Positions 5,488 through 48,408 of a stretch of 48,408 nucleotides of DNA are shown piece after piece. Where the stretch lies: IMG/VR virus record IMGVR_UViG_2740892271_000012. One strand, written 5' to 3'. The DNA comes from a virus (taxonomy: Duplodnaviria; Heunggongvirae; Uroviricota; Caudoviricetes). Position 1 is the first letter of the stretch. Each line of letters starts with the position of its first letter. The translations under genes were made by a program, and so were the position numbers. The notes beneath the pieces are model-generated. The model worked only from the letters and a program-made list of their open reading frames with translations. It did no database searches and was not told the DNA's origin.

Positions 5488-5763
5488 TCAGATTTCACCT
5501 TTTAATTTCATTGCAATTAGAGTTGCCAGAAATTCGGCTTTTTTTTCTGCGGGCAGATTCTTTCCGATATGCACCAGGCACATTTTTTTGACACCTTCAT
5601 CAAGTGTTTTTACGTTGCCTGATGGACCATCGATATCAACCACAGTGAATGGGGTTTCTTTATTTTCTGTTTTAATTACGTAGCCAATGCGCTTTCCTTC
5701 CAGATTCACCTCGTGAACAATGTCATCGGTAGTTACAACAGTGGCTTCATAATTGGTAATCAT
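5488..5763 (-). CDS. racC: RacC-like small protein
   Basis: ORF 5488-5811; ATG at 5763 with AAGGAG upstream gives MITNYEATVVTTDDIVHEV... Confidence 0.7.
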   Translation of the reverse strand: MITNYEATVVTTDDIVHEVNLEGKRIGYVIKTENKETPFTVVDIDGPSGNVKTLDEGVKKMCLVHIGKNLPAEKKAEFLATLIAMKLKGEI

Positions 5764-7746: not shown

Positions 7747-8166
7747 TTAAGAGGCTTTTTGTTTTTTCTTTCGTGCTAGCTCTTCGTAAATTGCATTGTA
7801 CTTCTGTTTTTTCTCCTCAAGAGTTTTTAAAAGTTCATCTGTCTCACTGTCAGGGAGCTCGTCCAGAAGGTCAATGATGATTTTTTGTCTTGGATTTAAC
7901 TCCTGATAGAAACGTACCTGTCCACTTTCTTCTGTATCCTCTCCCAAAAGATAGGTTGGTGTTGTTCCAATGAGTGTTGCTAATTCCCTTAATTTCTCTC
8001 GGCGAGGAATTGTTTCGCCATTAAACCATTTGCTAACCGCTTTTGGTGTTAATTTCATTCGACGGGCAATTTCTGCCTGCCTTCCATGTTGTTCATAACC
8101 AGCGTTTTCACAGGCTAGCGCAAGCCTACTGGCGAACTCTTTACGCGCTTTATCTTCATGAACCAT
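7747..8166 (-). CDS. racR: Prophage repressor (cI-like HTH XRE-family, no S24 peptidase domain; RacR-like)
   Basis: ORF 7747-8184 (GTG); ATG at 8166 gives MVHEDKARKEFASRLALACENAGYEQHGRQAEIARRMKLTPKAVSKWFNGE..., a classic HTH; acidic coiled C-terminus. Confidence 0.7.
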   Translation of the reverse strand: MVHEDKARKEFASRLALACENAGYEQHGRQAEIARRMKLTPKAVSKWFNGETIPRREKLRELATLIGTTPTYLLGEDTEESGQVRFYQELNPRQKIIIDLLDELPDSETDELLKTLEEKKQKYNAIYEELARKKKQKAS

Positions 8167-8245
8167 AAGTTCAATGATATTCACTCTTGAATGTACTGTC
8201 AGTTCTGTTATAGCATGTACTCAAAGTTCACATTGTGAGGGTGAT
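8167..8245. promoter_or_regulatory. Divergent promoter/operator region between repressor and cro-like gene
   Basis: Two direct ATGTACT copies (8191-8197 and 8215-8221) in the 79-bp gap between divergent racR and ydaS starts; same heptamer as at 7631. Confidence 0.35.
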
Positions 8246-8500
8246 ATGAACCAGAAAACACTTGAAGATGTAATCAAAACTGTTCGCGTTTCTGTTGTGG
8301 CCGACGTTTGTGGTGTCAGCCAAAGAGCAATCTACAAATGGATGGATAACGGAAAATTGCCTCGCACAGAATATACCGGCGAAACAAATTACGCTGAAAA
8401 AATCGCTCATGCATCAAACGGATTATTTTCTGCTGATGTAATTTTAACTATTGGCAGAAATAAAACTACTACGAAAAAGCTGATGGGAGTTGATTCATGA
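8246..8500 (+). CDS. ydaS: Cro-like small DNA-binding protein (YdaS-like)
   Basis: ORF 8174-8500; ATG at 8246 gives MNQKTLEDVIKTVRVSVVADVCGVSQRAIYKWMDNGKLP (HTH); divergent from repressor. Confidence 0.7.
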   Translation: MNQKTLEDVIKTVRVSVVADVCGVSQRAIYKWMDNGKLPRTEYTGETNYAEKIAHASNGLFSADVILTIGRNKTTTKKLMGVDS

Positions 8501-8919
8501 AAATCAAGCATGAGCACATCGAGTCAGTGTTGTTAGCCCTGGCAGCCGAAAAAGGGCAGGCATGGGTAGCCAATGCCATTACTGAAGAATATCTGCGCCA
8601 GGGGGGCGGCGAATTGCCCCTGGTACCAGGCAAGGACTGGAATAATCAGCAGAATATCTATCACCGTTGGTTGAAAGGTGAAACGAAAACGCAAAGAGAA
8701 AAAATTCAGAAGCTGATCCCAGCAATTCTGGCAATCCTTCCGCGCGAGCTGCGTCACCGACTCTGCATCTTCGATACCCTGGAACGCCGTGCATTACTGG
8801 CGGCGCAGGAAGCGTTAAGTACGGCAATTGATGCGCATGATGATGCAGTCCAAGCCGTTTACCGGAAAGCGCATTTCAGCGGCGGCGGGTCTTCCGACGA
8901 TTCTGTCATTGTTCATTAA
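8497..8919 (+). CDS. ydaT: YdaT-like protein (CII-position regulator/toxin-like)
   Basis: ORF track 140 aa MKIKHEHIESVLLALAAEKGQAWVANAITEEYL...; start overlaps ydaS stop. Confidence 0.7.
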   Translation: MKIKHEHIESVLLALAAEKGQAWVANAITEEYLRQGGGELPLVPGKDWNNQQNIYHRWLKGETKTQREKIQKLIPAILAILPRELRHRLCIFDTLERRALLAAQEALSTAIDAHDDAVQAVYRKAHFSGGGSSDDSVIVH

Positions 8920-8931
8920 GCAAAAGTTTCC

Positions 8932-9789
8932 ATGCTGTTTGTGCTTATTCTAAGCCACCGGGCAGCATCATACGGGGCAATTATGGCCGCATTACCATAC
9001 ATGCAACTGTACATAGCTGATTACCTGGCTGACACCATGCATTTGTCAGCAGAGGAGCATGGTGCGTATTTGTTGCTGATGTTCAATTACTGGCAAACAG
9101 GAAAGCCAATACCTAAAAACAGGCTGGCAAAAATTGCCCGTCTGACTAACGAGCGATGGGCTGATGTTGAACCATCCTTGCAGGAGTTTTTTTGCGATAA
9201 CGGCGAGGAATGGGTGCATCTTCGGATTGAGGAAGATCTGGCATCAGTCAGGGAAAAATTAACCAAAAAATCAGCCGCAGGAAAAGCATCTGTTCAGGCC
9301 AGAAGAAGCAGAAAGGAAGCAGATGTTCAAACAAAACAAGAGAGAAATTTAACAGGTGTTCAAACAGATGTTGAAGTGGTGTTTGAACATGATGTCAACA
9401 CAAAGGCAACTAATAAAGATACAGATAAAGATCTAAAAACAGATCCCCCCCTAAATCCCCCCCGGGGGAATCGAGGTGTCAAAAAGTTTGACCCTCTGGA
9501 TATTGCTTTGCCGAACTGGATTTCTGTCTCGCTTTGGCGTGAGTGGGTTGAATTTCGCCAGGCATTGCGAAAACCGATTCGAACGGAGCAGGGCGCTAAC
9601 GGGGCGATACGGGAGCTGGAAAAATTCCGCCAGCAGGGTTTTTCACCTGAGCAGGTGATTCGACACAGCATCGCCAATGAATACCAGGGCTTGTTCGCGC
9701 CGAAAGGTGTTCGACCTGAGACGTTACTCCGACAGGTTAACACCGTCTCGTTACCGGATAGTGCGATCCCGCCAGGCTTCAGGGGGTAA
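8932..9789 (+). CDS. ydaU: Replication initiation protein (YdaU-like, lambda O-position)
   Basis: ORF track 285 aa; sits before the DnaC-like loader gene; contains an internal iteron-like cluster in an interdomain linker. Confidence 0.7.
   Translation: MLFVLILSHRAASYGAIMAALPYMQLYIADYLADTMHLSAEEHGAYLLLMFNYWQTGKPIPKNRLAKIARLTNERWADVEPSLQEFFCDNGEEWVHLRIEEDLASVREKLTKKSAAGKASVQARRSRKEADVQTKQERNLTGVQTDVEVVFEHDVNTKATNKDTDKDLKTDPPLNPPRGNRGVKKFDPLDIALPNWISVSLWREWVEFRQALRKPIRTEQGANGAIRELEKFRQQGFSPEQVIRHSIANEYQGLFAPKGVRPETLLRQVNTVSLPDSAIPPGFRG
9321..9390. repeat. Iteron-like cluster: three copies of TGTTCAAACA (two direct, one inverted) followed by an A-rich stretch; candidate phage replication origin
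   Basis: Seen in sequence: tgttcaaaca at 9324-9333 and 9357-9366, reverse complement tgtttgaaca at 9380-9389, then aataaagatacagataaagatctaaaaac. Confidence 0.35.
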
Positions 9790-9795
9790 CTGACC

Positions 9796-10542
9796 ATGAA
9801 AAATATTGCGACAGGCGACGTTCTTGAACGTATCCGCAGACTGGCCCCGTCACATGTAACCGCGCCATTCAAGACGGTAGCGGAGTGGCGCGAGTGGCAA
9901 CTTTCCGAAGGCCAGAAACGTTGTGAGGAGATCAACCGTCAGAATCGTCAGTTGCGGGTGGAAAAAATTCTGAATCGCTCTGGCATCCAGCCATTGCACC
10001 GCAAATGCTCGTTTTCGAATTACCAGGTGCAGAACGAAGCGCAGCGATACGCGTTGAGTCAGGCGAAATCCATCGCTGATGAACTGATGACCGGGTGTAC
10101 AAATTTTGCGTTCAGCGGAAAACCTGGTACCGGGAAGAACCACTTAGCGGCAGCTATCGGGAATCGCCTGCTGAAAGACGGTCAGACAGTGATTGTGGTT
10201 ACCGTGGCTGATGTTATGAGTGCCCTGCACGCCAGCTATGACGATGGGCAGTCAGGCGAAAAATTTTTGCGGGAACTATGCGAAGTGGATCTGCTGGTTC
10301 TTGATGAAATTGGCATTCAGCGCGAGACGAAAAACGAGCAGGTGGTGCTGCACCAGATTGTTGATCGCCGGACAGCGTCGATGCGCAGCGTGGGGATGCT
10401 GACAAACCTGAACTATGAGGCCATGAAAACATTGCTCGGCGAGCGGATTATGGATCGCATGACCATGAACGGCGGGCGATGGGTGAATTTTAACTGGGAG
10501 AGCTGGCGTCCGAATGTCGTCCAGCCAGGAATTGAGAAGTAA
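9796..10542 (+). CDS. ydaV: DnaC-like helicase loader / IstB-like AAA+ ATPase (lambda P-position)
   Basis: ORF track 248 aa with Walker A GKPGTGKN and Walker B LLVLDEIG. Confidence 0.85.
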
Positions 10543-10564
10543 TTTTTACCGGGAGGAAATTTTT

Positions 10565-11326
10565 ATGGAGACTGTTTTTGACGCACTGAAAGCAATGGGA
10601 AAAGCCACATCCATAGAACTTGCTGCGCGACTTGATATCAGTCGTGAAGAAGTGCTGAACGAACTATGGGAACTGAAAAAAGCTGGTTTCGTTGATAAAA
10701 GCGCGTACACCTGGCGTGTGGCTGATAACAACGTTCAGCAGGAACAGCCAATGCAGGCAGAACTGCCGGAAGAAACCACCACGGCAACTGTAGTGAAAAT
10801 CTCAGAGTGCGATTTAACCGCGACGATTGAACAACGCGGACCACAAACGGCGGATGAACTGGCTACGCTGTTCGGTACAACATCCCGCAAAGTTGCTTCA
10901 ACGCTGGCAATGGCAATCAGCAAAGGACGCCTGATTCGCGTAAACCAGAACAGTAAATTTCGTTACTGCATGCCGGGCGATAATTTACCAGCAGAGCCGA
11001 AAGCTGCATCGGTAGCGGAAACTGATGGTAAAGCCTTTCCTCAGCCAGCCGGTGTTGCGTTACCAGTACAGGAAGCGGCAACACAGGAAGATATTAAAAC
11101 AGAAACTGTGGCGGACATTGTGCAGTCGCTGCCATCGTTTACTGAAACGCAAGCGGATGACCTAGTTTTACCATCGCTGCATATGGCAAACCGCGAACTG
11201 CGTCGGGCGAAAAATCATGTCCAGAAGTGGGAGCGAGTCTGCGCCGCGCTGCGGGAGCTGAACAAGCACCGGGATATTGTCCGACAGATTGTCGATTCCT
11301 CCAGTCGTATTGTGTCGGAAAAGTGA
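10565..11326 (+). CDS. Hypothetical protein (YdaW-like)
   Basis: ORF 10514-11326; ATG at 10565 gives [31 protein letters not shown] (winged-helix-like N-terminus). Confidence 0.5.
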
Positions 11327-11341
11327 TTGCCGGAGGCGCTT

Positions 11342-11758
11342 ATGGCAAAAGTTTTTACACAGGAAGAGCGTGAAAAAATTAAGGAGCAGGTTGTTGAGTT
11401 GGTACGCCAGAGTGGGCGCGAGACGTTAAGGCAACTGGAGGCCAAGACAGGTGCGACAAGATATCTGATGAGCATTCTTGCCAGAGAGTTGGTTGCCAGT
11501 GGCGATGTATACAACTCTGGCTATGGGTTATTCCCGTCTGAACAGGCTCGTAAGGATTGGAAAAACGCCCGCAAAAAACTATCCAGGGCAAAGGTGAAAA
11601 AAACGGTTGTGGTTGATCCTGACCTTATCTGGTCATTACCAGACGGAGAAATACGCCGCTATGACAGGCGTCAGAACATAATCTGTCGCGAGTGCCGGAA
11701 GAGTGAAGTTATGAAACGTGTACTGGCATTTTATCAAGGAAATCTTCGGTATTTATAG
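11342..11758 (+). CDS. Hypothetical protein
   Basis: ORF 11327-11758, probable start MAKVFTQEEREKIKEQ at 11342; basic C-terminus. Confidence 0.45.
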   Translation: MAKVFTQEEREKIKEQVVELVRQSGRETLRQLEAKTGATRYLMSILARELVASGDVYNSGYGLFPSEQARKDWKNARKKLSRAKVKKTVVVDPDLIWSLPDGEIRRYDRRQNIICRECRKSEVMKRVLAFYQGNLRYL

Positions 11759-11896
11759 ACGTTACTAGATCAAAGAGCATTAGTTCATATGTAAATTGAC
11801 ATTTTTCTGGCACAGGGGAGAGCTAGCGTGGTTGTCCGCTTTGTGCCAATAGCGGACATTGCTGGCTCATGGTATGTTAGTTTAAGGAGGCAGGTT

Positions 11897-12919
11897 ATGC
11901 CCTGTATTTCGCTGTGGTATAATAGTTGCGCAATTGATACAAGGGAGCGTTACATCGTGAAAATTGTTTTCGAGGTTAATGGAAAGAAAGTTCCACTAAA
12001 ATCTTTAAAATACATAAGCAAAAAAGATCAACTCGAAGTAATGAAAAACTGGTTCTTTGAAAACTTTGAAGATCCGGCAAATGCTTGTCCGTATGAAAGT
12101 AGAGAAGGTGGCTATGCTTACATATATGGCGGGCCGTATGATGCGAGCGAAGAACTACAATCCATCTTCGGTCAATATGTTAAATCTGAGTATATTGAGG
12201 AATTAGTAGATGAATTACAAACACAATGTTTTGACTGGTCTGGAAACTCAAATAATATAGATGATTGGTACGATGATGATATCTACGACGCTGTAACGTC
12301 TTCCGGTAATCCGTATTTAAAATTCATTGATAATATCGATAAAATAAAAAAACTTGCAAAAGATAAAACTGAACAACAGCAAAAAAACCACTTGCTTAGT
12401 TTGCTCTACACGAATGTTATTACAGCTTTGGAAACGCTTTATGTTGAGCTATTCATTAATTCTATAGAGAAAGATGATGTCTACATAGCCAATTGTATAG
12501 AAAAAGGTAAGACTGAATTTAAAGTAAGCAAAGATATTGCTGCGTTGCCTTTCAAGGGTGAACCCATCGAGAAAATTAGGGGAGAGCTAATCAGGTCAAT
12601 CAAGGAACACTTGATCAGTGCAAGCTGGCATAGCACTAAAAAGGTAATCGACCGCTATGAAGCTACATTCGATATAAAAGTACAAAAAGACTGTCCGATA
12701 GAAGCTATTGAATTGGCAACCCTCAATCGAAATCACTTAGTGCATCGTGGTGGAAAGGATAAAGAAGGGAACCTCGTAGTGATTACAGACCAGGATCTTG
12801 AAACGCTGATTGAAAATGCATCGAACCTGGCAATTATGCTCTACAACAGTTTAAATGTAGCAACGAATAAAACCACCATTTTGCAACCAGATGACAAACC
12901 GTTCATTCATGAATTTTAA
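11897..12919 (+). CDS. Cargo protein A: uncharacterised protein with a C-terminal RNHLVH (Rx4H, HEPN-type) motif; candidate RNase-like effector
   Basis: ORF 11828-12919; strong SD AAGGAGG 6 nt before ATG at 11897 (alternative GTG at 11957 after AAGGGAG and a TGgTATAAT element); motif LNRNHLVHRGG encoded at 12722-12754; AT-rich codon usage by eye. Confidence 0.55.
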   Translation: MPCISLWYNSCAIDTRERYIVKIVFEVNGKKVPLKSLKYISKKDQLEVMKNWFFENFEDPANACPYESREGGYAYIYGGPYDASEELQSIFGQYVKSEYIEELVDELQTQCFDWSGNSNNIDDWYDDDIYDAVTSSGNPYLKFIDNIDKIKKLAKDKTEQQQKNHLLSLLYTNVITALETLYVELFINSIEKDDVYIANCIEKGKTEFKVSKDIAALPFKGEPIEKIRGELIRSIKEHLISASWHSTKKVIDRYEATFDIKVQKDCPIEAIELATLNRNHLVHRGGKDKEGNLVVITDQDLETLIENASNLAIMLYNSLNVATNKTTILQPDDKPFIHEF

Positions 12920-12934
12920 TAGCGCAGGTCATAC

Positions 12935-13936
12935 ATGGATATTCGCACACGAAAGACAAAATTTTTAGAGTCGTTAGATTCAACTGAAGTGATACGCAAA
13001 GCAGTAAGTCTCGCTATAGATTGCATTATTGATAATCATAATAGTAATGAAGATACCCCCTTAGTTATTACCAGCTATGATGATCTCTGTAGAATCCAGG
13101 TGCTAAATTATGTACAGGAGTTTTGCGAAGCTGCATTCCCTGATATGGATGAATATTACTTTAGTCCTAACATACTTCGCATCAACGGCAAGACTAGTGA
13201 AGAAGCTTGTATTAACTTAATTAAACTCTTAAGAAGTACAAAAGGCATGCTATTCTGGTCCGATGCCCCATCGTGGTTCGCTAGCCTCCCCGACGGATTA
13301 TTCCATGTTGTTAACATTGATCAAAAAATCGTTACTCGCGGCCTTAATAAGAAAAACTCTAAGCCGACAATAATCAATAAAGATTACAGTGTAGATACAC
13401 TACTATCAGAGCTATTTTTGAATGGCGCACACATGGAGCAACCCAACGTACACAACGTTTCTGAGGGAAACATGAAGTTCTATGATGAATGCCATGCTGG
13501 ATTAATCAGACCAATACCCGCTCCAATAGGCGCGTCATACGATGAAGAGATCACAATTAATTCTCCAGATTGGCAAAAGCTCGCGTGTGTAGCTTTACGC
13601 CGCTATCAGTCGAAGGAATGTCATGACGGAATGCAATGGGATACAACCGATCATGGTTGGACTGATGTAATCGCGTATCCATTCGTCGAAGAAATACAAT
13701 CAATGGATAATAGTGGTTATCGACAATGTTTAGTTGGGCTGGTCACAATAAACAATTCAAATGCAAATTCTCCGTACCTATCTACCGTTTGGATACATCC
13801 ATTTTATCGCAGGAGAGGGTTATTAAGTAAGTTATGGCCAAAATTACAAGAGTTATATGGAAGTAACTTCGAAATTGAGCGACCTAATGAAAATATGAAA
13901 GCATTTCTGAAAAGTGCGAAACACGCAGATTACTAA
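12935..13936 (+). CDS. Cargo protein B: two-domain protein with a C-terminal GNAT-like acetyltransferase fold
   Basis: ORF track 333 aa; 15 bp after gene A; C-terminal segment CLVGLVTI...VWIHPFYRRRGLLSKL resembles GNAT motif A (encoded around 13796-13825); N-terminal ~180 aa unrecognised. Confidence 0.6.
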   Translation: MDIRTRKTKFLESLDSTEVIRKAVSLAIDCIIDNHNSNEDTPLVITSYDDLCRIQVLNYVQEFCEAAFPDMDEYYFSPNILRINGKTSEEACINLIKLLRSTKGMLFWSDAPSWFASLPDGLFHVVNIDQKIVTRGLNKKNSKPTIINKDYSVDTLLSELFLNGAHMEQPNVHNVSEGNMKFYDECHAGLIRPIPAPIGASYDEEITINSPDWQKLACVALRRYQSKECHDGMQWDTTDHGWTDVIAYPFVEEIQSMDNSGYRQCLVGLVTINNSNANSPYLSTVWIHPFYRRRGLLSKLWPKLQELYGSNFEIERPNENMKAFLKSAKHADY

Positions 13937-14496
13937 TTTATGAATCAGTCTGTGGAGTTAGGGTTGGTGTGAACAAGTAGGGTAAGAGCCTCAACGTGAT
14001 GCTATGCCGACCTGCTCCCTGAGAATTCACACAGAAGGCTGCTAGCAATGTCTGCAGATCGCTCAAAGCGGACTAAAATGTTGGCTTGTTTCTGACTTAG
14101 AGCATTTAAGGAAGTGCTGGTGGTGACTGGTTGTTGTGTTCCATTTCTACAGAATAAAATCACAGAAACTATACCCAATAGTTGTATTGAATCACTGACG
14201 AGACAGCCTCATATTTATCAGGACTGGTGTGCGTCTAATACAGGGGGTTGTCGTGCTGGTTCTCAAATGTGCGCTGGCTATTGCGGCTGTAATGGCAATT
14301 TATTGTCTTGCTGTTGTTCTTATGGAGCGGCTTTCTGATTGATTACATACTGGCTAGAAAAAAGGTGTTACCTTGGTTTATCTTTGTCCGGCAAGGTGCG
14401 CTCATTAATCTTAAGTAAATTTATTGCTCAAGTATTCAGATTACTTCTTATGGTTGAAGTCTCCTGTCAATGTAGAACCAATATATTTACAAAAAT

Positions 14497-16308: not shown

Positions 16309-16598
16309 TGGTGAATTTACGTAAAGCGGCTAAAGGCCAGATGTGCCAGATCAGAATCCCTGGCTACTGCAATCACAATCCCGAAACCTCTGTGCTGGCG
16401 CATTACAGGCTGGCGGGGACGTGCGGAACAGCGACAAAACCACATGATATGCAGGCGGCGATAGCCTGTAGCTCATGCCACGATCTAATCGACGGGCGGG
16501 TAAAAACCAGCGATTACACCAAAGAAGAATTGCGCCTGATGCATGCTGAAGGGGTTTTTCGCACACAAGAAATCTGGAGAAAGAAAGGTCATTTATGA
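16308..16598 (+). CDS. YbcO-like DUF1364 protein (Cys4 putative nuclease)
   Basis: ORF track 96 aa MVNLRKAAKGQMCQIRIPGYCNHNPETSVLAH...CSSCHDLID; recalled similarity to DLP12 YbcO. Confidence 0.65.
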   Translation: MVNLRKAAKGQMCQIRIPGYCNHNPETSVLAHYRLAGTCGTATKPHDMQAAIACSSCHDLIDGRVKTSDYTKEELRLMHAEGVFRTQEIWRKKGHL

Positions 16599-17137
16599 TT
16601 TACCCAACGAATACAGGAAAAAGCGGAGAACACCTTCGCCTCACCACGCTGGAAAGTGTCTGGATTCAGGGAAAACTACGTATGTGGGGGCGCTGGTCGT
16701 ATATTGGCGGTGGCAGGTCAGGGAATATGTTCAATCAGTTGTTGGCATCCAAAAAACTGACGAAAACAGCCATTAATGAAGCCCTGCGCAGAATGAAAAA
16801 AGCGGGAATAGAGAAAGCTGAGCTGGAAGCGTTTTTGCGAGAGATGATCAACGGCAAGCAAAAGAGCTGGCTGGCGCATTGTACTGATGCAGAGGCGTTA
16901 TGTATTGATCGAGTCATAAGTGAGGTGCTGGCAGAGCATCCAGGATTGATTTGCATTCTCCGGCAACGCTATGAAGGGCGGGGGATGACTAAGCGCAAAA
17001 TGGCTGAATTGCTAAATGATGCACACCCAGAGTGGTGTTTTAGCACATGCGAAAAACGGATTGCTAATTGGTTAGCTGTTGCTGAGTATGCCCTATATAT
17101 TCCCATGCGTGAATCATTTGCTGAGAAAATGGCTTGA
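16595..17137 (+). CDS. Putative late-gene antiterminator (Q-like)
   Basis: ORF track 180 aa; last gene before the lysis region, overlapping start with the previous gene; WxxGxW-type block (RMWGRWSY); assignment is largely positional. Confidence 0.55.
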   Translation: MIYPTNTGKSGEHLRLTTLESVWIQGKLRMWGRWSYIGGGRSGNMFNQLLASKKLTKTAINEALRRMKKAGIEKAELEAFLREMINGKQKSWLAHCTDAEALCIDRVISEVLAEHPGLICILRQRYEGRGMTKRKMAELLNDAHPEWCFSTCEKRIANWLAVAEYALYIPMRESFAEKMA

Positions 17138-17245: not shown

Positions 17246-17564
17246 CGTCAGGAAAGCAGGGGAGAATGCTGCTAGTTGGGCAACTGGTCTTTCTGCTCCA
17301 AATTATAACAGAGACCAGTTATAGTTTCGGTGCTGTGTTTTTTTTACAATATTGTGATAACACATTGCTGGCGGGAGTTTTGATATTTCTTGGCAGGGGC
17401 TGATGATGCGTTATCCTGATGTCGTCAACTCATATAAAATGAGATGAGAGATCATTGCAGGGTGGTTTGTAATTCGCTGTTTAGCGGGACAATATGTTGT
17501 CTGATACAAGACACCCGACGCCTCAGATTACTATAATAAAGACGAAGCATCCTTTGTATTGACC

Positions 17565-17590
17565 AACCGCCTGTTTAGGCGGTTCTTTTT
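17565..17590 (+). terminator. Rho-independent terminator-like hairpin, candidate tR'-type
   Basis: Seen in sequence: aaccgcc tgttta ggcggtt cttttt; a perfect TATAAT hexamer lies at 17532-17537 about 30 bp upstream. Confidence 0.45.
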
Positions 17591-18181
17591 GGGCTGGTTT
17601 ATTGTATGCCAAATGATTATTAAAAAGGTTGTGTTAATAACAAGATCCGAAATAATATGCCTGCATATTTTTATCTTGCTTATATTCTGCATATTGTGCA
17701 TAGCAGGCTCATCCCTGCAATCAAAACTGTATGATGAGTATTTTTTGTTTTCCTTTTTTCCAGTCATCTGATGATGACCTGCTTCTTTTTAATCCGGATC
17801 GACATCAGTTTTTTAAGATAATTCCTGCGAGTTATATGCATAAATGCCACAAACTCCGCATTTTATGTGGTTGGGAGTTGCCGGGCGCGCAGTGAGTTTG
17901 CTAAGAAAACTCCTGCATGGTGAATCCCCCTGTGCGGTGGGGTGATACCATTAACCTTTTCTGTCGCCGACAGGTATCACGAACATTTTGTTCACCGGGA
18001 GGCACCCGGCACCATGCACTTCAATAGATTCTCTCCACATTATGGATATTCTTTCAGAATATCCCACGCAGACTTTGTGTAAATGTTAACAAATGTGCGT
18101 TTTATTTGATCTGATTCGCTGTTTGAGCGTCCAAAACAACGGTATATATAATCCTTTACTATATGACATATGTGAGGAAAA

Positions 18182-18610
18182 ATGGGTTTTCGTAGCGCAT
18201 CAATTCTTACGTTGATTATTAGTGGGATTATTATCGGGTGCACTGATGCTGTATCGACAAATTATCATGACCGTACATCATATTACTCCGATAAAGCAAT
18301 AGAGACACAGTATGTGAGTTCATCTGAACGTACTTCTGATGTTAGTGAGGATATCCGTCTGTATGCCCATCAAATCAAGAGCGCCATCGAAAAACAGTTC
18401 GGGGATGCGAGTAAGTATTCAGGAAAAGAGTGTACACTGAGAATGCATATGGCCCCGAATGGCCTTCTACTGGAGGTTAAAAGAGAAAGTGGAGACCTCG
18501 ATTTATGTCGTGAAGCGATGAATGCGATAAAGAATGCTGATATACCTGCCCCCCCTTCGCCGGAAGTATATAAAGTATTTCAAAATGGGGTGCTGGATTT
18601 TAAACCCTGA
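18182..18610 (+). CDS. Lipoprotein with TolA C-terminal domain (domain III)-like region
   Basis: ORF track 142 aa; signal peptide with lipobox IIGC; C-terminus YAHQIKSAIEKQFGDASKYSGKECTLRMHMAPNGLLLEVKRESGDLDLCREAMNAIKNADIPAPPSPEVYKVFQNGVLDFKP aligns by recall to TolA ...YAGQIKSAIESKFYDASSYAGKTCTLRIKLAPDGMLLDIKPEGGDPALC...PLDFKP. Confidence 0.75.
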   Translation: MGFRSASILTLIISGIIIGCTDAVSTNYHDRTSYYSDKAIETQYVSSSERTSDVSEDIRLYAHQIKSAIEKQFGDASKYSGKECTLRMHMAPNGLLLEVKRESGDLDLCREAMNAIKNADIPAPPSPEVYKVFQNGVLDFKP

Positions 18611-18760
18611 TATTTATTGTTTTGTAATAAACGGTTTCGGCTTAGGTTTGTTCTGACACAGCTACGGCACTGAGCTAAATTTAGCGGATAGTCAGCTCTG
18701 AGCCAGTGGCGGACGTAACAACTACTATTGCTGAGATTTTAATGGATTGAGGAGCAAGAA

Positions 18761-19156
18761 GTGGGATTAAAGAAAATCGTTATGTTGACTTTTTGGGTCG
18801 GTTTTGTTGCGGGATGCACACCTTTACACCCTTCAGATTGCCACAAAACTACTGCTACAGGTAGTTGCAGTTCAGGACGCTGGGATGATCAGGATGAATG
18901 GGGGGCGCAAGCGCGGGGAATCAGAGCTGCAATTAATGCCAAACTTGATGAGCCGCATAACTGGAAAGGGAAAAAATGCAGGTTGCATATGGAATTCTCT
19001 CAGGATGGCACGGCGTTAAAAATATCTACCAGTAACGGTGATAAAGCCTATTGCGAAGCGATAAAGTCCGCAGCTCATAAAGCCAAATTTCCGGCCTTCA
19101 ACAATCCGGAAGTCTACAGAGATTTTCAGAAATCTGGCTTTGACATGCGAGGTTAG
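18761..19156 (+). CDS. Second lipoprotein with a diverged TolA domain III-like C-terminus (paralogue)
   Basis: ORF track 131 aa (GTG start after GAGGAG); lipobox VAGC; C-terminus KGKKCRLHMEFSQDGTALKISTSNGDKAYCEAIKSAAHKAKFPAFNNPEVYRDFQKSGFD has the same Cys spacing and motif order. Confidence 0.65.
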   Translation: MGLKKIVMLTFWVGFVAGCTPLHPSDCHKTTATGSCSSGRWDDQDEWGAQARGIRAAINAKLDEPHNWKGKKCRLHMEFSQDGTALKISTSNGDKAYCEAIKSAAHKAKFPAFNNPEVYRDFQKSGFDMRG

Positions 19157-19281
19157 CTCTTCAATTACTATATCTCATTCATAGCAAACTGACAGATTTG
19201 ATGATGTTCTATATACGAAACCTGTGATGTCAAGTCTGAGCTAATACAAATAAACATAATATCAGAGAAATACATTTTATT

Positions 19282-19306
19282 AGCTCGCTACGGCGAGCTT
19301 TTTATA
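19282..19306 (+). terminator. Rho-independent terminator after the lipoprotein gene pair
   Basis: Seen in sequence: agctcgc tacg gcgagct ttttatatt. Confidence 0.5.
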
Positions 19307-19407
19307 TTGCATCGTCTCCAGCATATATATCAATTAAGGCTCTGATTGATGTGTCTGAAAGCCTACACATAATAACTATGCCATCCGTTCCGTGCGGAGG
19401 TGAGGCT

Positions 19408-19623
19408 ATGAAATCCATGGACAAAATTTCAACAGGCATTGCCTACGGCACCTCCGCAGGCAGTGCTGGCTACTGGTTTTTACAGTTGCTCGATAGAGTA
19501 ACTCCGTCACAGTGGGCTGCAATCGGTGTGCTGGGTAGTCTGGTATTTGGCCTGCTGACGTACCTGACAAACCTTTATTTCAAGATTAAAGAAGATAAGC
19601 GCAAGGCTGCGAGAGGTGAATAA
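19408..19623 (+). CDS. Phage 21-type pinholin S with dual start (MKSM), 71 aa
   Basis: ORF 19351-19623; ATG at 19408 gives [71 protein letters not shown]. Confidence 0.85.
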
Positions 19624-47824: not shown

Positions 47825-48408
47825 TGGCATTCAGAATGAGTGAACAACCACGGACCATAAAAATTTATAATCTGCTGGCCGGAACTAATGAATTTATTGG
47901 TGAAGGTGATGCATATATTCCGCCTCATACAGGTCTGCCAGCAAACAGTACCGATATTGCACCGCCAGATATTCCGGCTGGCTTCGTGGCTGTTTTCAAC
48001 AGTGATGAGTCATCGTGGCATCTCGTTGAAGATCATCGGGGTAAAACGGTTTATGACGTGGCTTCCGGCGACGCGTTATTTATTTCTGAACTCGGTCCGT
48101 TACCGGAAAATGTTACCTGGTTATCGCCGGAAGGGGAGTTTCAGAAGTGGAACGGCACAGCCTGGGTGAAGGATACGGAAGCAGAAAAACTGTTCCGGAT
48201 CCGGGAGGCGGAAGAAACAAAAAACAACCTGATGCAGGTAGCCAGTGAGCATATTGCGCCGCTTCAGGATGCTGCAGATCTGGAAATTGCAACGGAGGAA
48301 GAAATCTCGTTGCTGGAAGCATGGAAAAAGTATCGGGTATTGCTGAACCGTGTTGATACGTCAACTGCACCTGATATTGAGTGGCCTACGAACCCTGTCA
48401 GGGAGTAA
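47824..48408 (+). CDS. tfaR: Tail fibre assembly protein (Tfa-like)
   Basis: ORF track 194 aa [45 protein letters not shown]...; start overlaps stf stop; stop codon at window end. Confidence 0.85.

Follow-up and report, generated by a model that had tools for sequence, protein, structure and literature searches.

Why does a prophage carry, between its late antiterminator and its holin, two genes that copy part of a host protein exploited by colicins and filamentous phages? The question is raised by a 48,408-nucleotide stretch of viral DNA (IMG/VR record IMGVR_UViG_2740892271_000012; hereafter the window), which is a full-length Rac-type Escherichia coli prophage with an identical counterpart in NZ_CP033250. 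Two neighbouring genes, here called A and B, encode short proteins that end in a domain resembling TolA's C-terminal one (TolA domain III, TolAIII). An initial annotation made from the DNA letters had called both products lipoproteins, had noted that the first is very close to TolA and ends, like it, in VLDFKP, and had suggested that they act as colicin or phage decoys or modulate the Tol-Pal system during lysis. The structural claims are borne out below. As to function, we lean, with confidence somewhat short of even, towards the view that A and B are outer-membrane-tethered TolAIII decoys that would make the cell tolerant of bacteriocins that depend on Tol and of filamentous phages.

Genes A and B encode predicted lipoproteins with a TolA domain III fold

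The Pfam profile TolA_C (PF06519, gathering cut-off 25 bits) matches residues 49-140 of A (E 2.4e-23, 82.6 bits) and residues 44-125 of B (E 1.3e-14, 54.6 bits). Residues 55-142 of A align to residues 334-421 of E. coli TolA in seven solved entries (E about 1e-28). A is 60% and B 34% identical to E. coli TolAIII, and the two proteins share 29% identity; A ends in GVLDFKP where TolA ends in APLDFKP. AlphaFold models of both proteins have a predicted local distance difference test score (pLDDT) of 84-96 across the domain and fall below 50, as disordered, over the first 40-50 or so residues. The top Foldseek match of A in the PDB is E. coli TolAIII 2x9a_B, with a root-mean-square deviation (rmsd) of 0.6 Å over 88 columns and a template modelling (TM) score of 0.96, and that of B is E. 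coli TolAIII 3qdp (rmsd 1.1 Å, 83 columns, TM 0.89); TonB C-terminal domains match either protein only distantly. In an alignment of 18 sequences the two cysteine columns of TolAIII (C363 and C388 of TolA) are invariant and correspond to C84 and C109 in A and to C73 and C98 in B.

A and B belong to the TolA_C family and are not full-length TolA. Both lack the inner-membrane anchor that couples TolA to TolQ and TolR, as well as the long helical domain II, and have a short disordered linker instead. With scores of 107.8 for A and 53.7 for B, both fall under the cut-off of 213 set for the full-length model NF007065. On TIGR02794, B is again under the cut-off (47.2), while A exceeds it (75.6 against 59.45) with a match confined to model positions 265-362. 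Because A passes this full-length TolA cut-off while matching its C-terminus only, the annotation pipeline PGAP labels the gene in the Rac-type prophage a 'tolA pseudogene, missing N-terminus' of 261 bp (L001 20451-20711). A variant of the gene is annotated as an intact 142-residue coding sequence in other prophages, and the pseudogene label is an artefact, a systematic RefSeq mis-annotation of an intact gene.

Both genes are intact and lie on the same strand, each with its own start and Shine-Dalgarno sequence. Gene B starts at a GTG 6 nt 3' of GAGGAG; PGAP instead places the start at ATG 18782, and the RefSeq product is WP_001348108.1, a 'cell envelope integrity TolA C-terminal domain-containing protein'. 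At each N-terminus a basic n-region and a hydrophobic core precede a canonical lipobox (pattern [LVI][ASTVI][GAS]C), which is IIGC in A and VAGC in B, as first described, and is kept among homologues. The product of A begins MGFRSASILTLIISGIIIGC followed by TD, and that of B MGLKKIVMLTFWVGFVAGC followed by TP, which places Thr at +2 in each; neither has Asp there. Under the standard Lol rule, in which Asp at +2 is the Lol avoidance signal, A and B are predicted to be outer-membrane lipoproteins that face the periplasm.

Could the two genes simply be decayed, functionless fragments of a captured tolA? PGAP does call A 'tolA, incomplete, missing N-terminus' in the Rac context, and several truncated or frameshifted variants occur among the database clusters (P0010). 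Yet both open reading frames (ORFs) are intact, and each has a start, a Shine-Dalgarno sequence and a signal peptide for lipoproteins of its own; annotations of other prophages give the ORF of A as intact, and the pseudogene label is the TIGR02794 effect described above. The ratio of nonsynonymous to synonymous substitution rates (dN/dS) is also well below 1, at 0.28-0.40 for A (pairwise, against variants from Stx-like prophages) and 0.04-0.12 for B (pairwise, against plasmid, Enterobacter and Serratia copies), values which indicate that both genes are under purifying selection. Furthermore, about 780 genomes carry the whole A-B unit with an identity of at least 99%. We consider decay highly improbable. 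An origin of A as a recent duplication or fragment of the host gene was rejected as well, because megablast with A reaches 888 of 5,426 complete E. coli genomes and not all of them; host tolA is unmatched at this level, and the G+C content of A is lower.

A retains both binding edges of TolA and B at most one

The β3 strand of TolA, L417-D418-F419-K420-P421, is the strand-addition site for TolB, colicin N (ColN) and the phage protein g3p, and the substitutions D418P and K420P each abolish binding and produce a full tol phenotype (PMC4339652; PMC7391070). The site for colicin A (ColA) is formed by β2 residues L375-P380 together with the cation-pi lysines K368, K379 and K396 (PMC3365938). We compared both sites by alignment, in which a TolA residue number equals that of A plus 279 or that of B plus 290. 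At the β3 edge, A has LDFKP, exactly as in TolA, and B has FDMRG, which is similar only. At the ColA site, A has LLEVKR with H89, K100 and K117, a near-identical β2 edge, and B has ALKIST with E78, S89 and H106, so that all three lysines are lost. Judged by these residues, A should engage on either edge whatever engages E. coli TolAIII, B would keep at most a β3-type mode, and the two proteins differ sharply in the fidelity with which they mimic TolA.

B has a further feature of its own. Its linker, CTPLHPSDCHKTTATGSCSSGRWDDQDEW, is 25 residues long, has no counterpart in TolA and is constrained as strongly as the domain (dN/dS 0.015-0.10). The Cys-x8-Cys motif within it recurs in many distant representatives of clusters built at 50% identity, and appears to be an added conserved loop that is probably closed by a disulfide.

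Stand-alone TolA domains are carried by many mobile elements

A variant of A with 82% nucleotide identity is present in Stx-like prophages of 97 genomes. The gene order there is Q, a methyltransferase gene, tRNA-Ile, tRNA-Arg, the A variant, the nanS-p esterase gene and the holin gene; B is absent. The variant occupies the exact stx slot, a tighter link to stx than the initial annotation had claimed when it compared the sites by position. The A ORF alone is common to the Rac and Stx-like prophages, and its flanks are unrelated.

B is widely spread. Megablast finds it in 1,269 of the 5,426 complete E. coli genomes, with 525 matches on plasmids, and among species representatives it extends to about 12 enterobacterial genera. 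On IncI1-type (MPF_I) plasmids, relatives with about 88% identity follow the nikB relaxase gene and precede trbC/trbB/trbA (L117 4964-5395), and pO157 keeps a remnant of this arrangement, a B-family gene beside a nikB pseudogene near toxB (L116 4964-5395). In Enterobacter and Serratia, relatives of B are solitary chromosomal genes. The orthologue in Serratia marcescens adjoins a defence-like pair, GmrSD_N (DUF262) and HEPN, between nrdDG and an arsenic permease gene (L090 6957-8736). Across 25 B loci we found no conserved partner gene; the recurring clusters were only generic LysR paralogues and an antisense ORF.

A different arrangement is found on small Klebsiella plasmids. The 10-kb K. pneumoniae cloacin plasmid CP043367.1 (L002 3687-4420) encodes a TolAIII lipoprotein with the lipobox LTAC and the end APLDFRP, and its gene has a 4-nt overlap with one that encodes a stand-alone TonB C-terminal domain (TonB-CTD) exported by Sec. 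Operons of this type occur on hundreds of small Klebsiella plasmids, and 'TolA and TolB family proteins' have been mentioned on a cloacin plasmid (PMC10269471). The sole LexA box of the plasmid lies at the cloacin promoter, which drives the cloacin and lysis genes; none precedes the TolAIII/TonB-CTD operon. Another TolAIII lipoprotein, a relative of B with the lipobox ITAC, is encoded on a Klebsiella MPF_I plasmid and adjoins a gene for a thioredoxin-fold protein. Co-induction of TolAIII genes by LexA together with release or lysis was also considered and dropped, as there is no LexA box at the operon and none in the window.

By tblastn, TolAIII-like ORFs lie on 1,300 plasmids, and when 1.8 billion cluster representatives were searched with a profile, 576 matched. 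Among the best 150 of these 576, 95 are shorter than 175 residues, at least 58 of the 95 have a lipobox and a few have ordinary signal peptides. When viral contigs were scanned with B, the 80 loci obtained were nearly identical and of the Rac type, and brought no further diversity. A and B are members of a large class that resides mostly on mobile elements, and are not a local oddity. The statement in the initial annotation that no function had been assigned still holds: PHROGs places both proteins in phrog_5772, 'unknown function', PADLOC-DB 2.0 has no defence model that matches A, B or the plasmid TolAIII/TonB-CTD pair, and the literature searchable as full text, from which subscription journals are mostly missing, yielded neither a functional study nor any paper about prophage- or plasmid-encoded TolA domains. 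The genes themselves already had a domain annotation.

The distribution of B also bears on a different possibility, namely that B, chiefly, serves another periplasmic partner. The TolAIII/TonB-CTD fold is a general module for β-strand addition, and B might bind another conserved envelope protein, such as the plug of an outer-membrane protein, CpoB or a component of a conjugation apparatus or pilus, with a role in transfer, entry exclusion or envelope stress that has nothing to do with colicins. Strong conservation across genera, which extends to the non-TolA linker and its recurrent Cys-x8-Cys, fits this proposal, as do the loss of the three ColA-site lysines, the position between relaxase and trbC/trbB/trbA on IncI1-type plasmids and the thioredoxin-fold neighbour on the Klebsiella MPF_I plasmid. 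However, the 25 loci have no conserved neighbour and thus no encoded partner, B is also present in genomes and prophages that have no conjugation genes nearby, and its C-terminal strand retains the β3-type pattern. We think this explanation rather improbable.

A proposed decoy for ligands that hijack TolA

How might tethered TolAIII domains protect a lysogen? A tether of about 25-33 residues would hold a free TolAIII domain in the space that separates outer membrane and cell wall, just under the porins, at the site where colicin translocation domains leave the porins and phage g3p arrives. Group A colicins and klebicins that pass through OmpF or OmpC, and the g3p tips of filamentous phages, need to bind TolAIII for import, or else TolB, which in turn needs to bind TolAIII. 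Copies tethered there, disconnected from the TolQR motor, would use the same β-strand addition to trap these ligands and lead them to a dead end, and with ligands diverted from energised TolA the lysogen would become tolerant. The affinity of ColN for TolA is 1 µM, and that of TolB for TolA is 40 µM (PMC4339652). With parasite ligands held about 40 times more tightly than TolB, there could be a low-cost window in which decoys in modest quantity keep invaders out and leave Tol-Pal largely unharmed. The two proteins may divide the labour, with A as a faithful mimic at both edges and B as an older, widely spread paralogue that offers a β3-type edge only. With a predicted promoter and a terminator of its own, the pair could be expressed in the lysogen, and Q-modified polymerase would also read through it late in infection.

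This proposal has a laboratory precedent. Levengood-Freyermuth, Click and Webster (1993) reportedly found that exporting free TolAIII to the periplasm rendered wild-type cells tolerant to colicins E1, E2, E3 and A. The most telling comparative clue, in our view, is the operon of TolAIII and TonB-CTD on a bacteriocin plasmid, which brings together docking modules for the two routes by which bacteriocins are imported. Filamentous phages provide another line. The pili of MPF_I (IncI1-type) plasmids attract filamentous phages that depend on TolA, and carriage of TolAIII lipoproteins by MPF_I plasmids fits protection of the host from such phages; 2x9a, the closest structure to A, is a solved complex of phage IF1 g3p with TolAIII. 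Host protection would also suit the Serratia locus, where B adjoins the GmrSD_N and HEPN pair. The decoy idea of the initial annotation has thereby gained indirect support from the binding edges kept in A and from the mobile-element contexts, and the tolerance itself we infer.

Several observations weigh against this proposal. Placement in the outer membrane is predicted from the +2 rule alone, and the candidate promoter upstream of A was recognised by its consensus match alone. B is often solitary on the chromosome, where it has no defence neighbours. Its 34% identity to TolAIII, absent ColA-site lysines, dN/dS of about 0.05 and Cys-x8-Cys foreign to TolA suggest that it recognises a conserved partner, which need not be a colicin or a phage. 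Finally, the 1993 study is said to have seen periplasmic leakage as well; a decoy would carry a cost, and the same biochemistry would fit an antagonist of Tol-Pal.

A broader generalisation is more tentative still, and we put it forward as a possibility. Secreted stand-alone TolAIII proteins, mostly lipoprotein-tethered and sometimes accompanied by a free TonB-CTD, could be a widespread and unrecognised class of defence genes on prophages, conjugative and bacteriocin plasmids and chromosomal islands. By co-receptor mimicry they would confer broad tolerance to Tol- and Ton-dependent bacteriocins and to pilus-specific filamentous phages, and in E. coli would alter the sensitivity of roughly a fifth of strains to colicins and phages.

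The A-B unit as a probable moron

The prophage has the order intR, xisR, ralR/RalA, recET, kilR, sieB, replication genes, hokD, a YbcO-like gene, a Q-like gene, A, B, holin, endolysin, Rz/Rz1, trkG and ynaK. The features around A and B are collected in Table 1. As the initial annotation had stated, the pair lies at the Q-to-holin moron site and closes with its own terminator; the hairpin has a folding free energy (dG) of -13 kcal/mol (z = -4.23), and none of 200 shuffled sequences folds as well. The spacer between A and B is compatible with co-transcription, as judged from its scan and fold. The G+C content of the unit is 40-46%, against about 50% for the genes upstream. With its promoter predicted, the unit resembles a classic moron in layout.

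Table 1. Features of the A-B locus in the window (nucleotide positions in the 48,408-nucleotide stretch; aa, amino acid residues of the product)
Feature	Position	Strand	Description
Q-like late-gene antiterminator	16595-17137	+	Pfam DUF1133 E 2.5e-107; borderline Phage_antitermQ, 26.1 bits against a cut-off of 26
Candidate late promoter	17508-17537	+	AAGACA-18-TATAAT, consensus scan
Terminator-like hairpin after candidate late promoter	17565-17584	+	dG -14.3, z = -1.9
STnc100-family small RNA-like element	17885-18071	+	Rfam RF02076, 86.6 bits (gathering 47), E 2.8e-17; directly 5' of A
Sigma-70 promoter-like site	18123-18152	+	TTGAGC-18-TATAAT, 10/12 consensus; 30 nt 5' of the A start
Gene A	18182-18610	+	ORF of 142 aa; predicted lipoprotein with TolA domain III
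Gene A signal peptide and lipobox	aa 1-20, 18182-18241	+	Lipobox IIGC, Cys20
Gene A linker	aa 21-53	+	Ser/Thr/Tyr-rich, disordered
Gene A TolAIII	aa 54-142, 18341-18607	+	
A-B spacer	18611-18760	+	No terminator in scan; fold like shuffles, z = -0.83
Gene B	18761-19156	+	ORF of 131 aa; predicted lipoprotein with diverged TolA domain III
Gene B signal peptide and lipobox	aa 1-19	+	Lipobox VAGC, Cys19
Gene B linker	aa 20-44, 18818-18892	+	Conserved Cys-x8-Cys (CHKTTATGSC)
Gene B TolAIII	aa 45-131, 18893-19153	+	
Intrinsic terminator	19282-19305	+	Hairpin 19282-19299 (7-bp GC-rich stem, 4-nt loop) and T-run; closes the A-B unit before the holin gene
P21-type holin	19351-19623	+	Pfam Phage_holin_2_1 E 4.5e-35; annotated essD in the identical prophage; endolysin and Rz/Rz1 come next

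By analogy with lambdoid architecture, the candidate late promoter and the hairpin that follows it may form a pR'/tR'-like arrangement. In an Stx-like prophage (L085 about 5500-5560) the STnc100 motif GGTGAATCCCCCTGTGCGG recurs 3' of the A variant, and the element may be a conserved late-region feature that bounds cargo insertions. No tRNA genes like those at the Stx-phage site were found in the window. A run of N from 19827 to about 20140 masks most of the endolysin gene, where NZ_CP033250 has rrrD, and leaves the lysis cassette of the window only partly readable.

The position of the pair next to the lysis genes is central to a second account of the same biochemistry, in which A and B are antagonists of Tol-Pal. 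A tethered TolAIII would bind the N-terminus of TolB and keep TolB from TolA; Pal would then stay sequestered and the outer membrane would be loosened. The purpose would be to weaken the envelope and not to protect the cell, by helping progeny, bacteriocin or DNA to cross it or by raising vesicle production. The β3 strand of A that corresponds to the TolB-binding strand of TolA is identical to it, and the late-operon site directly before holin, endolysin and spanin could, with Q-dependent read-through, give a burst of both proteins at lysis. The leakage reportedly caused by free periplasmic TolAIII in 1993 would fit, as would the residence of a relative on a plasmid for bacteriocin release. 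A review adds that tuning the contacts of TolB with TolA or with Pal could regulate vesiculation (PMC7391070). However, a dedicated terminator before the holin gene together with a promoter-like site 5' of A is the layout of morons expressed in the lysogen, and a complete pair of spanins is already encoded by the phage. Relatives of B live mostly in non-lytic contexts, the chromosomes of about 12 genera and the backbones of IncI1-type plasmids, and the partner in the plasmid operon, TonB-CTD, has no role in membrane stability, in an operon without a LexA box. The affinity between TolA and TolB, at 40 µM, is also weak. We regard this account as unlikely; in particular, the notion of Tol-Pal modulation during lysis, raised by the initial annotation, is weakened by the fact that relatives of B mostly reside outside phages. 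Whatever probability remains we assign to functions other than those discussed here.

Relation to known systems

The closest known relative is the host domain itself (E. coli TolA 325-421; PDB 1TOL, 2X9A, 3QDP/3QDR and 1S62), which has the same fold and cysteine pair and to which A is 60% identical. Unlike host TolA, A and B have no inner-membrane anchor, domain II or link to TolQR; a lipoprotein signal and short tether would attach them to the opposite membrane, and their genes are carried on mobile elements with lower G+C content. The exported free TolAIII of the 1993 work and free TonB-CTD, as reportedly used in the laboratory, share with A and B the principle of a periplasmic docking domain that has no motor, and the natural Klebsiella operon encodes both kinds side by side. 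Those constructs were artificial, soluble, overproduced and, it is said, leaky, whereas A and B are natural, predicted to be lipid-anchored and presumably made at a low level.

Small lipoproteins from mobile elements that alter entry into the cell, often encoded by morons near lysis genes, are likewise found in Llp of T5, Cor of phi80 and N15 (both FhuA blockers), TraT of the F plasmid and Bor of lambda. These bind and mask a surface receptor, whereas A and B would imitate a periplasmic co-receptor. The Pfam and PHROG scans of A and B gave no match other than TolA_C and phrog_5772 and showed no relation in sequence to the Llp, Cor, TraT or Bor families. Another functional parallel is the superinfection exclusion that Boeke, Model and Zinder (1982) reportedly described, in which g3p fragments occupy TolA. 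It involves the same interaction of TolA with g3p and blocks entry of Tol-dependent phages and colicins; there the ligand saturates the receptor, and A and B would be its mirror image, a spare receptor domain that soaks up the ligand.

With stx and other cargo between Q and the lysis genes, the likeness is one of position, since the A variant follows tRNA-Ile and tRNA-Arg and precedes nanS-p, as stxAB does. The cargo differs in being a predicted periplasmic lipoprotein and not a secreted toxin, and the Rac-type slot has two genes and no tRNAs. The stx slot of lambdoid prophages also carries envelope cargo of the TolAIII-lipoprotein kind.

Entry of colicins and filamentous phages by the TolA route is a textbook system, and natural tolerance to it is commonly explained by mutations in receptors or in tol and by immunity proteins. 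If the decoy proposal is correct, a horizontally spread co-receptor decoy would be a new and simple principle of resistance, which imitates a periplasmic hub rather than masking a surface receptor. It could help to explain differences in colicin sensitivity from strain to strain, and would bear on colicins and klebicins as antimicrobials, on hosts for phage display and on the ecology of IncI1-type plasmids and pO157.

Other features of the window

Cargo of non-phage type lies at about 8100-14400 (L001 10215-16465), between the replication genes and hokD, and comprises genes for a BCCT transporter, a DUF2254 protein, a LysR regulator, a gamma-glutamylcyclotransferase and an MFS transporter. The RalA antitoxin small RNA is found at 1557-1735 (225 bits), at the left end of Rac, and the Rfam element IS009 at 48167-48365 (221 bits), at the right end of the window.

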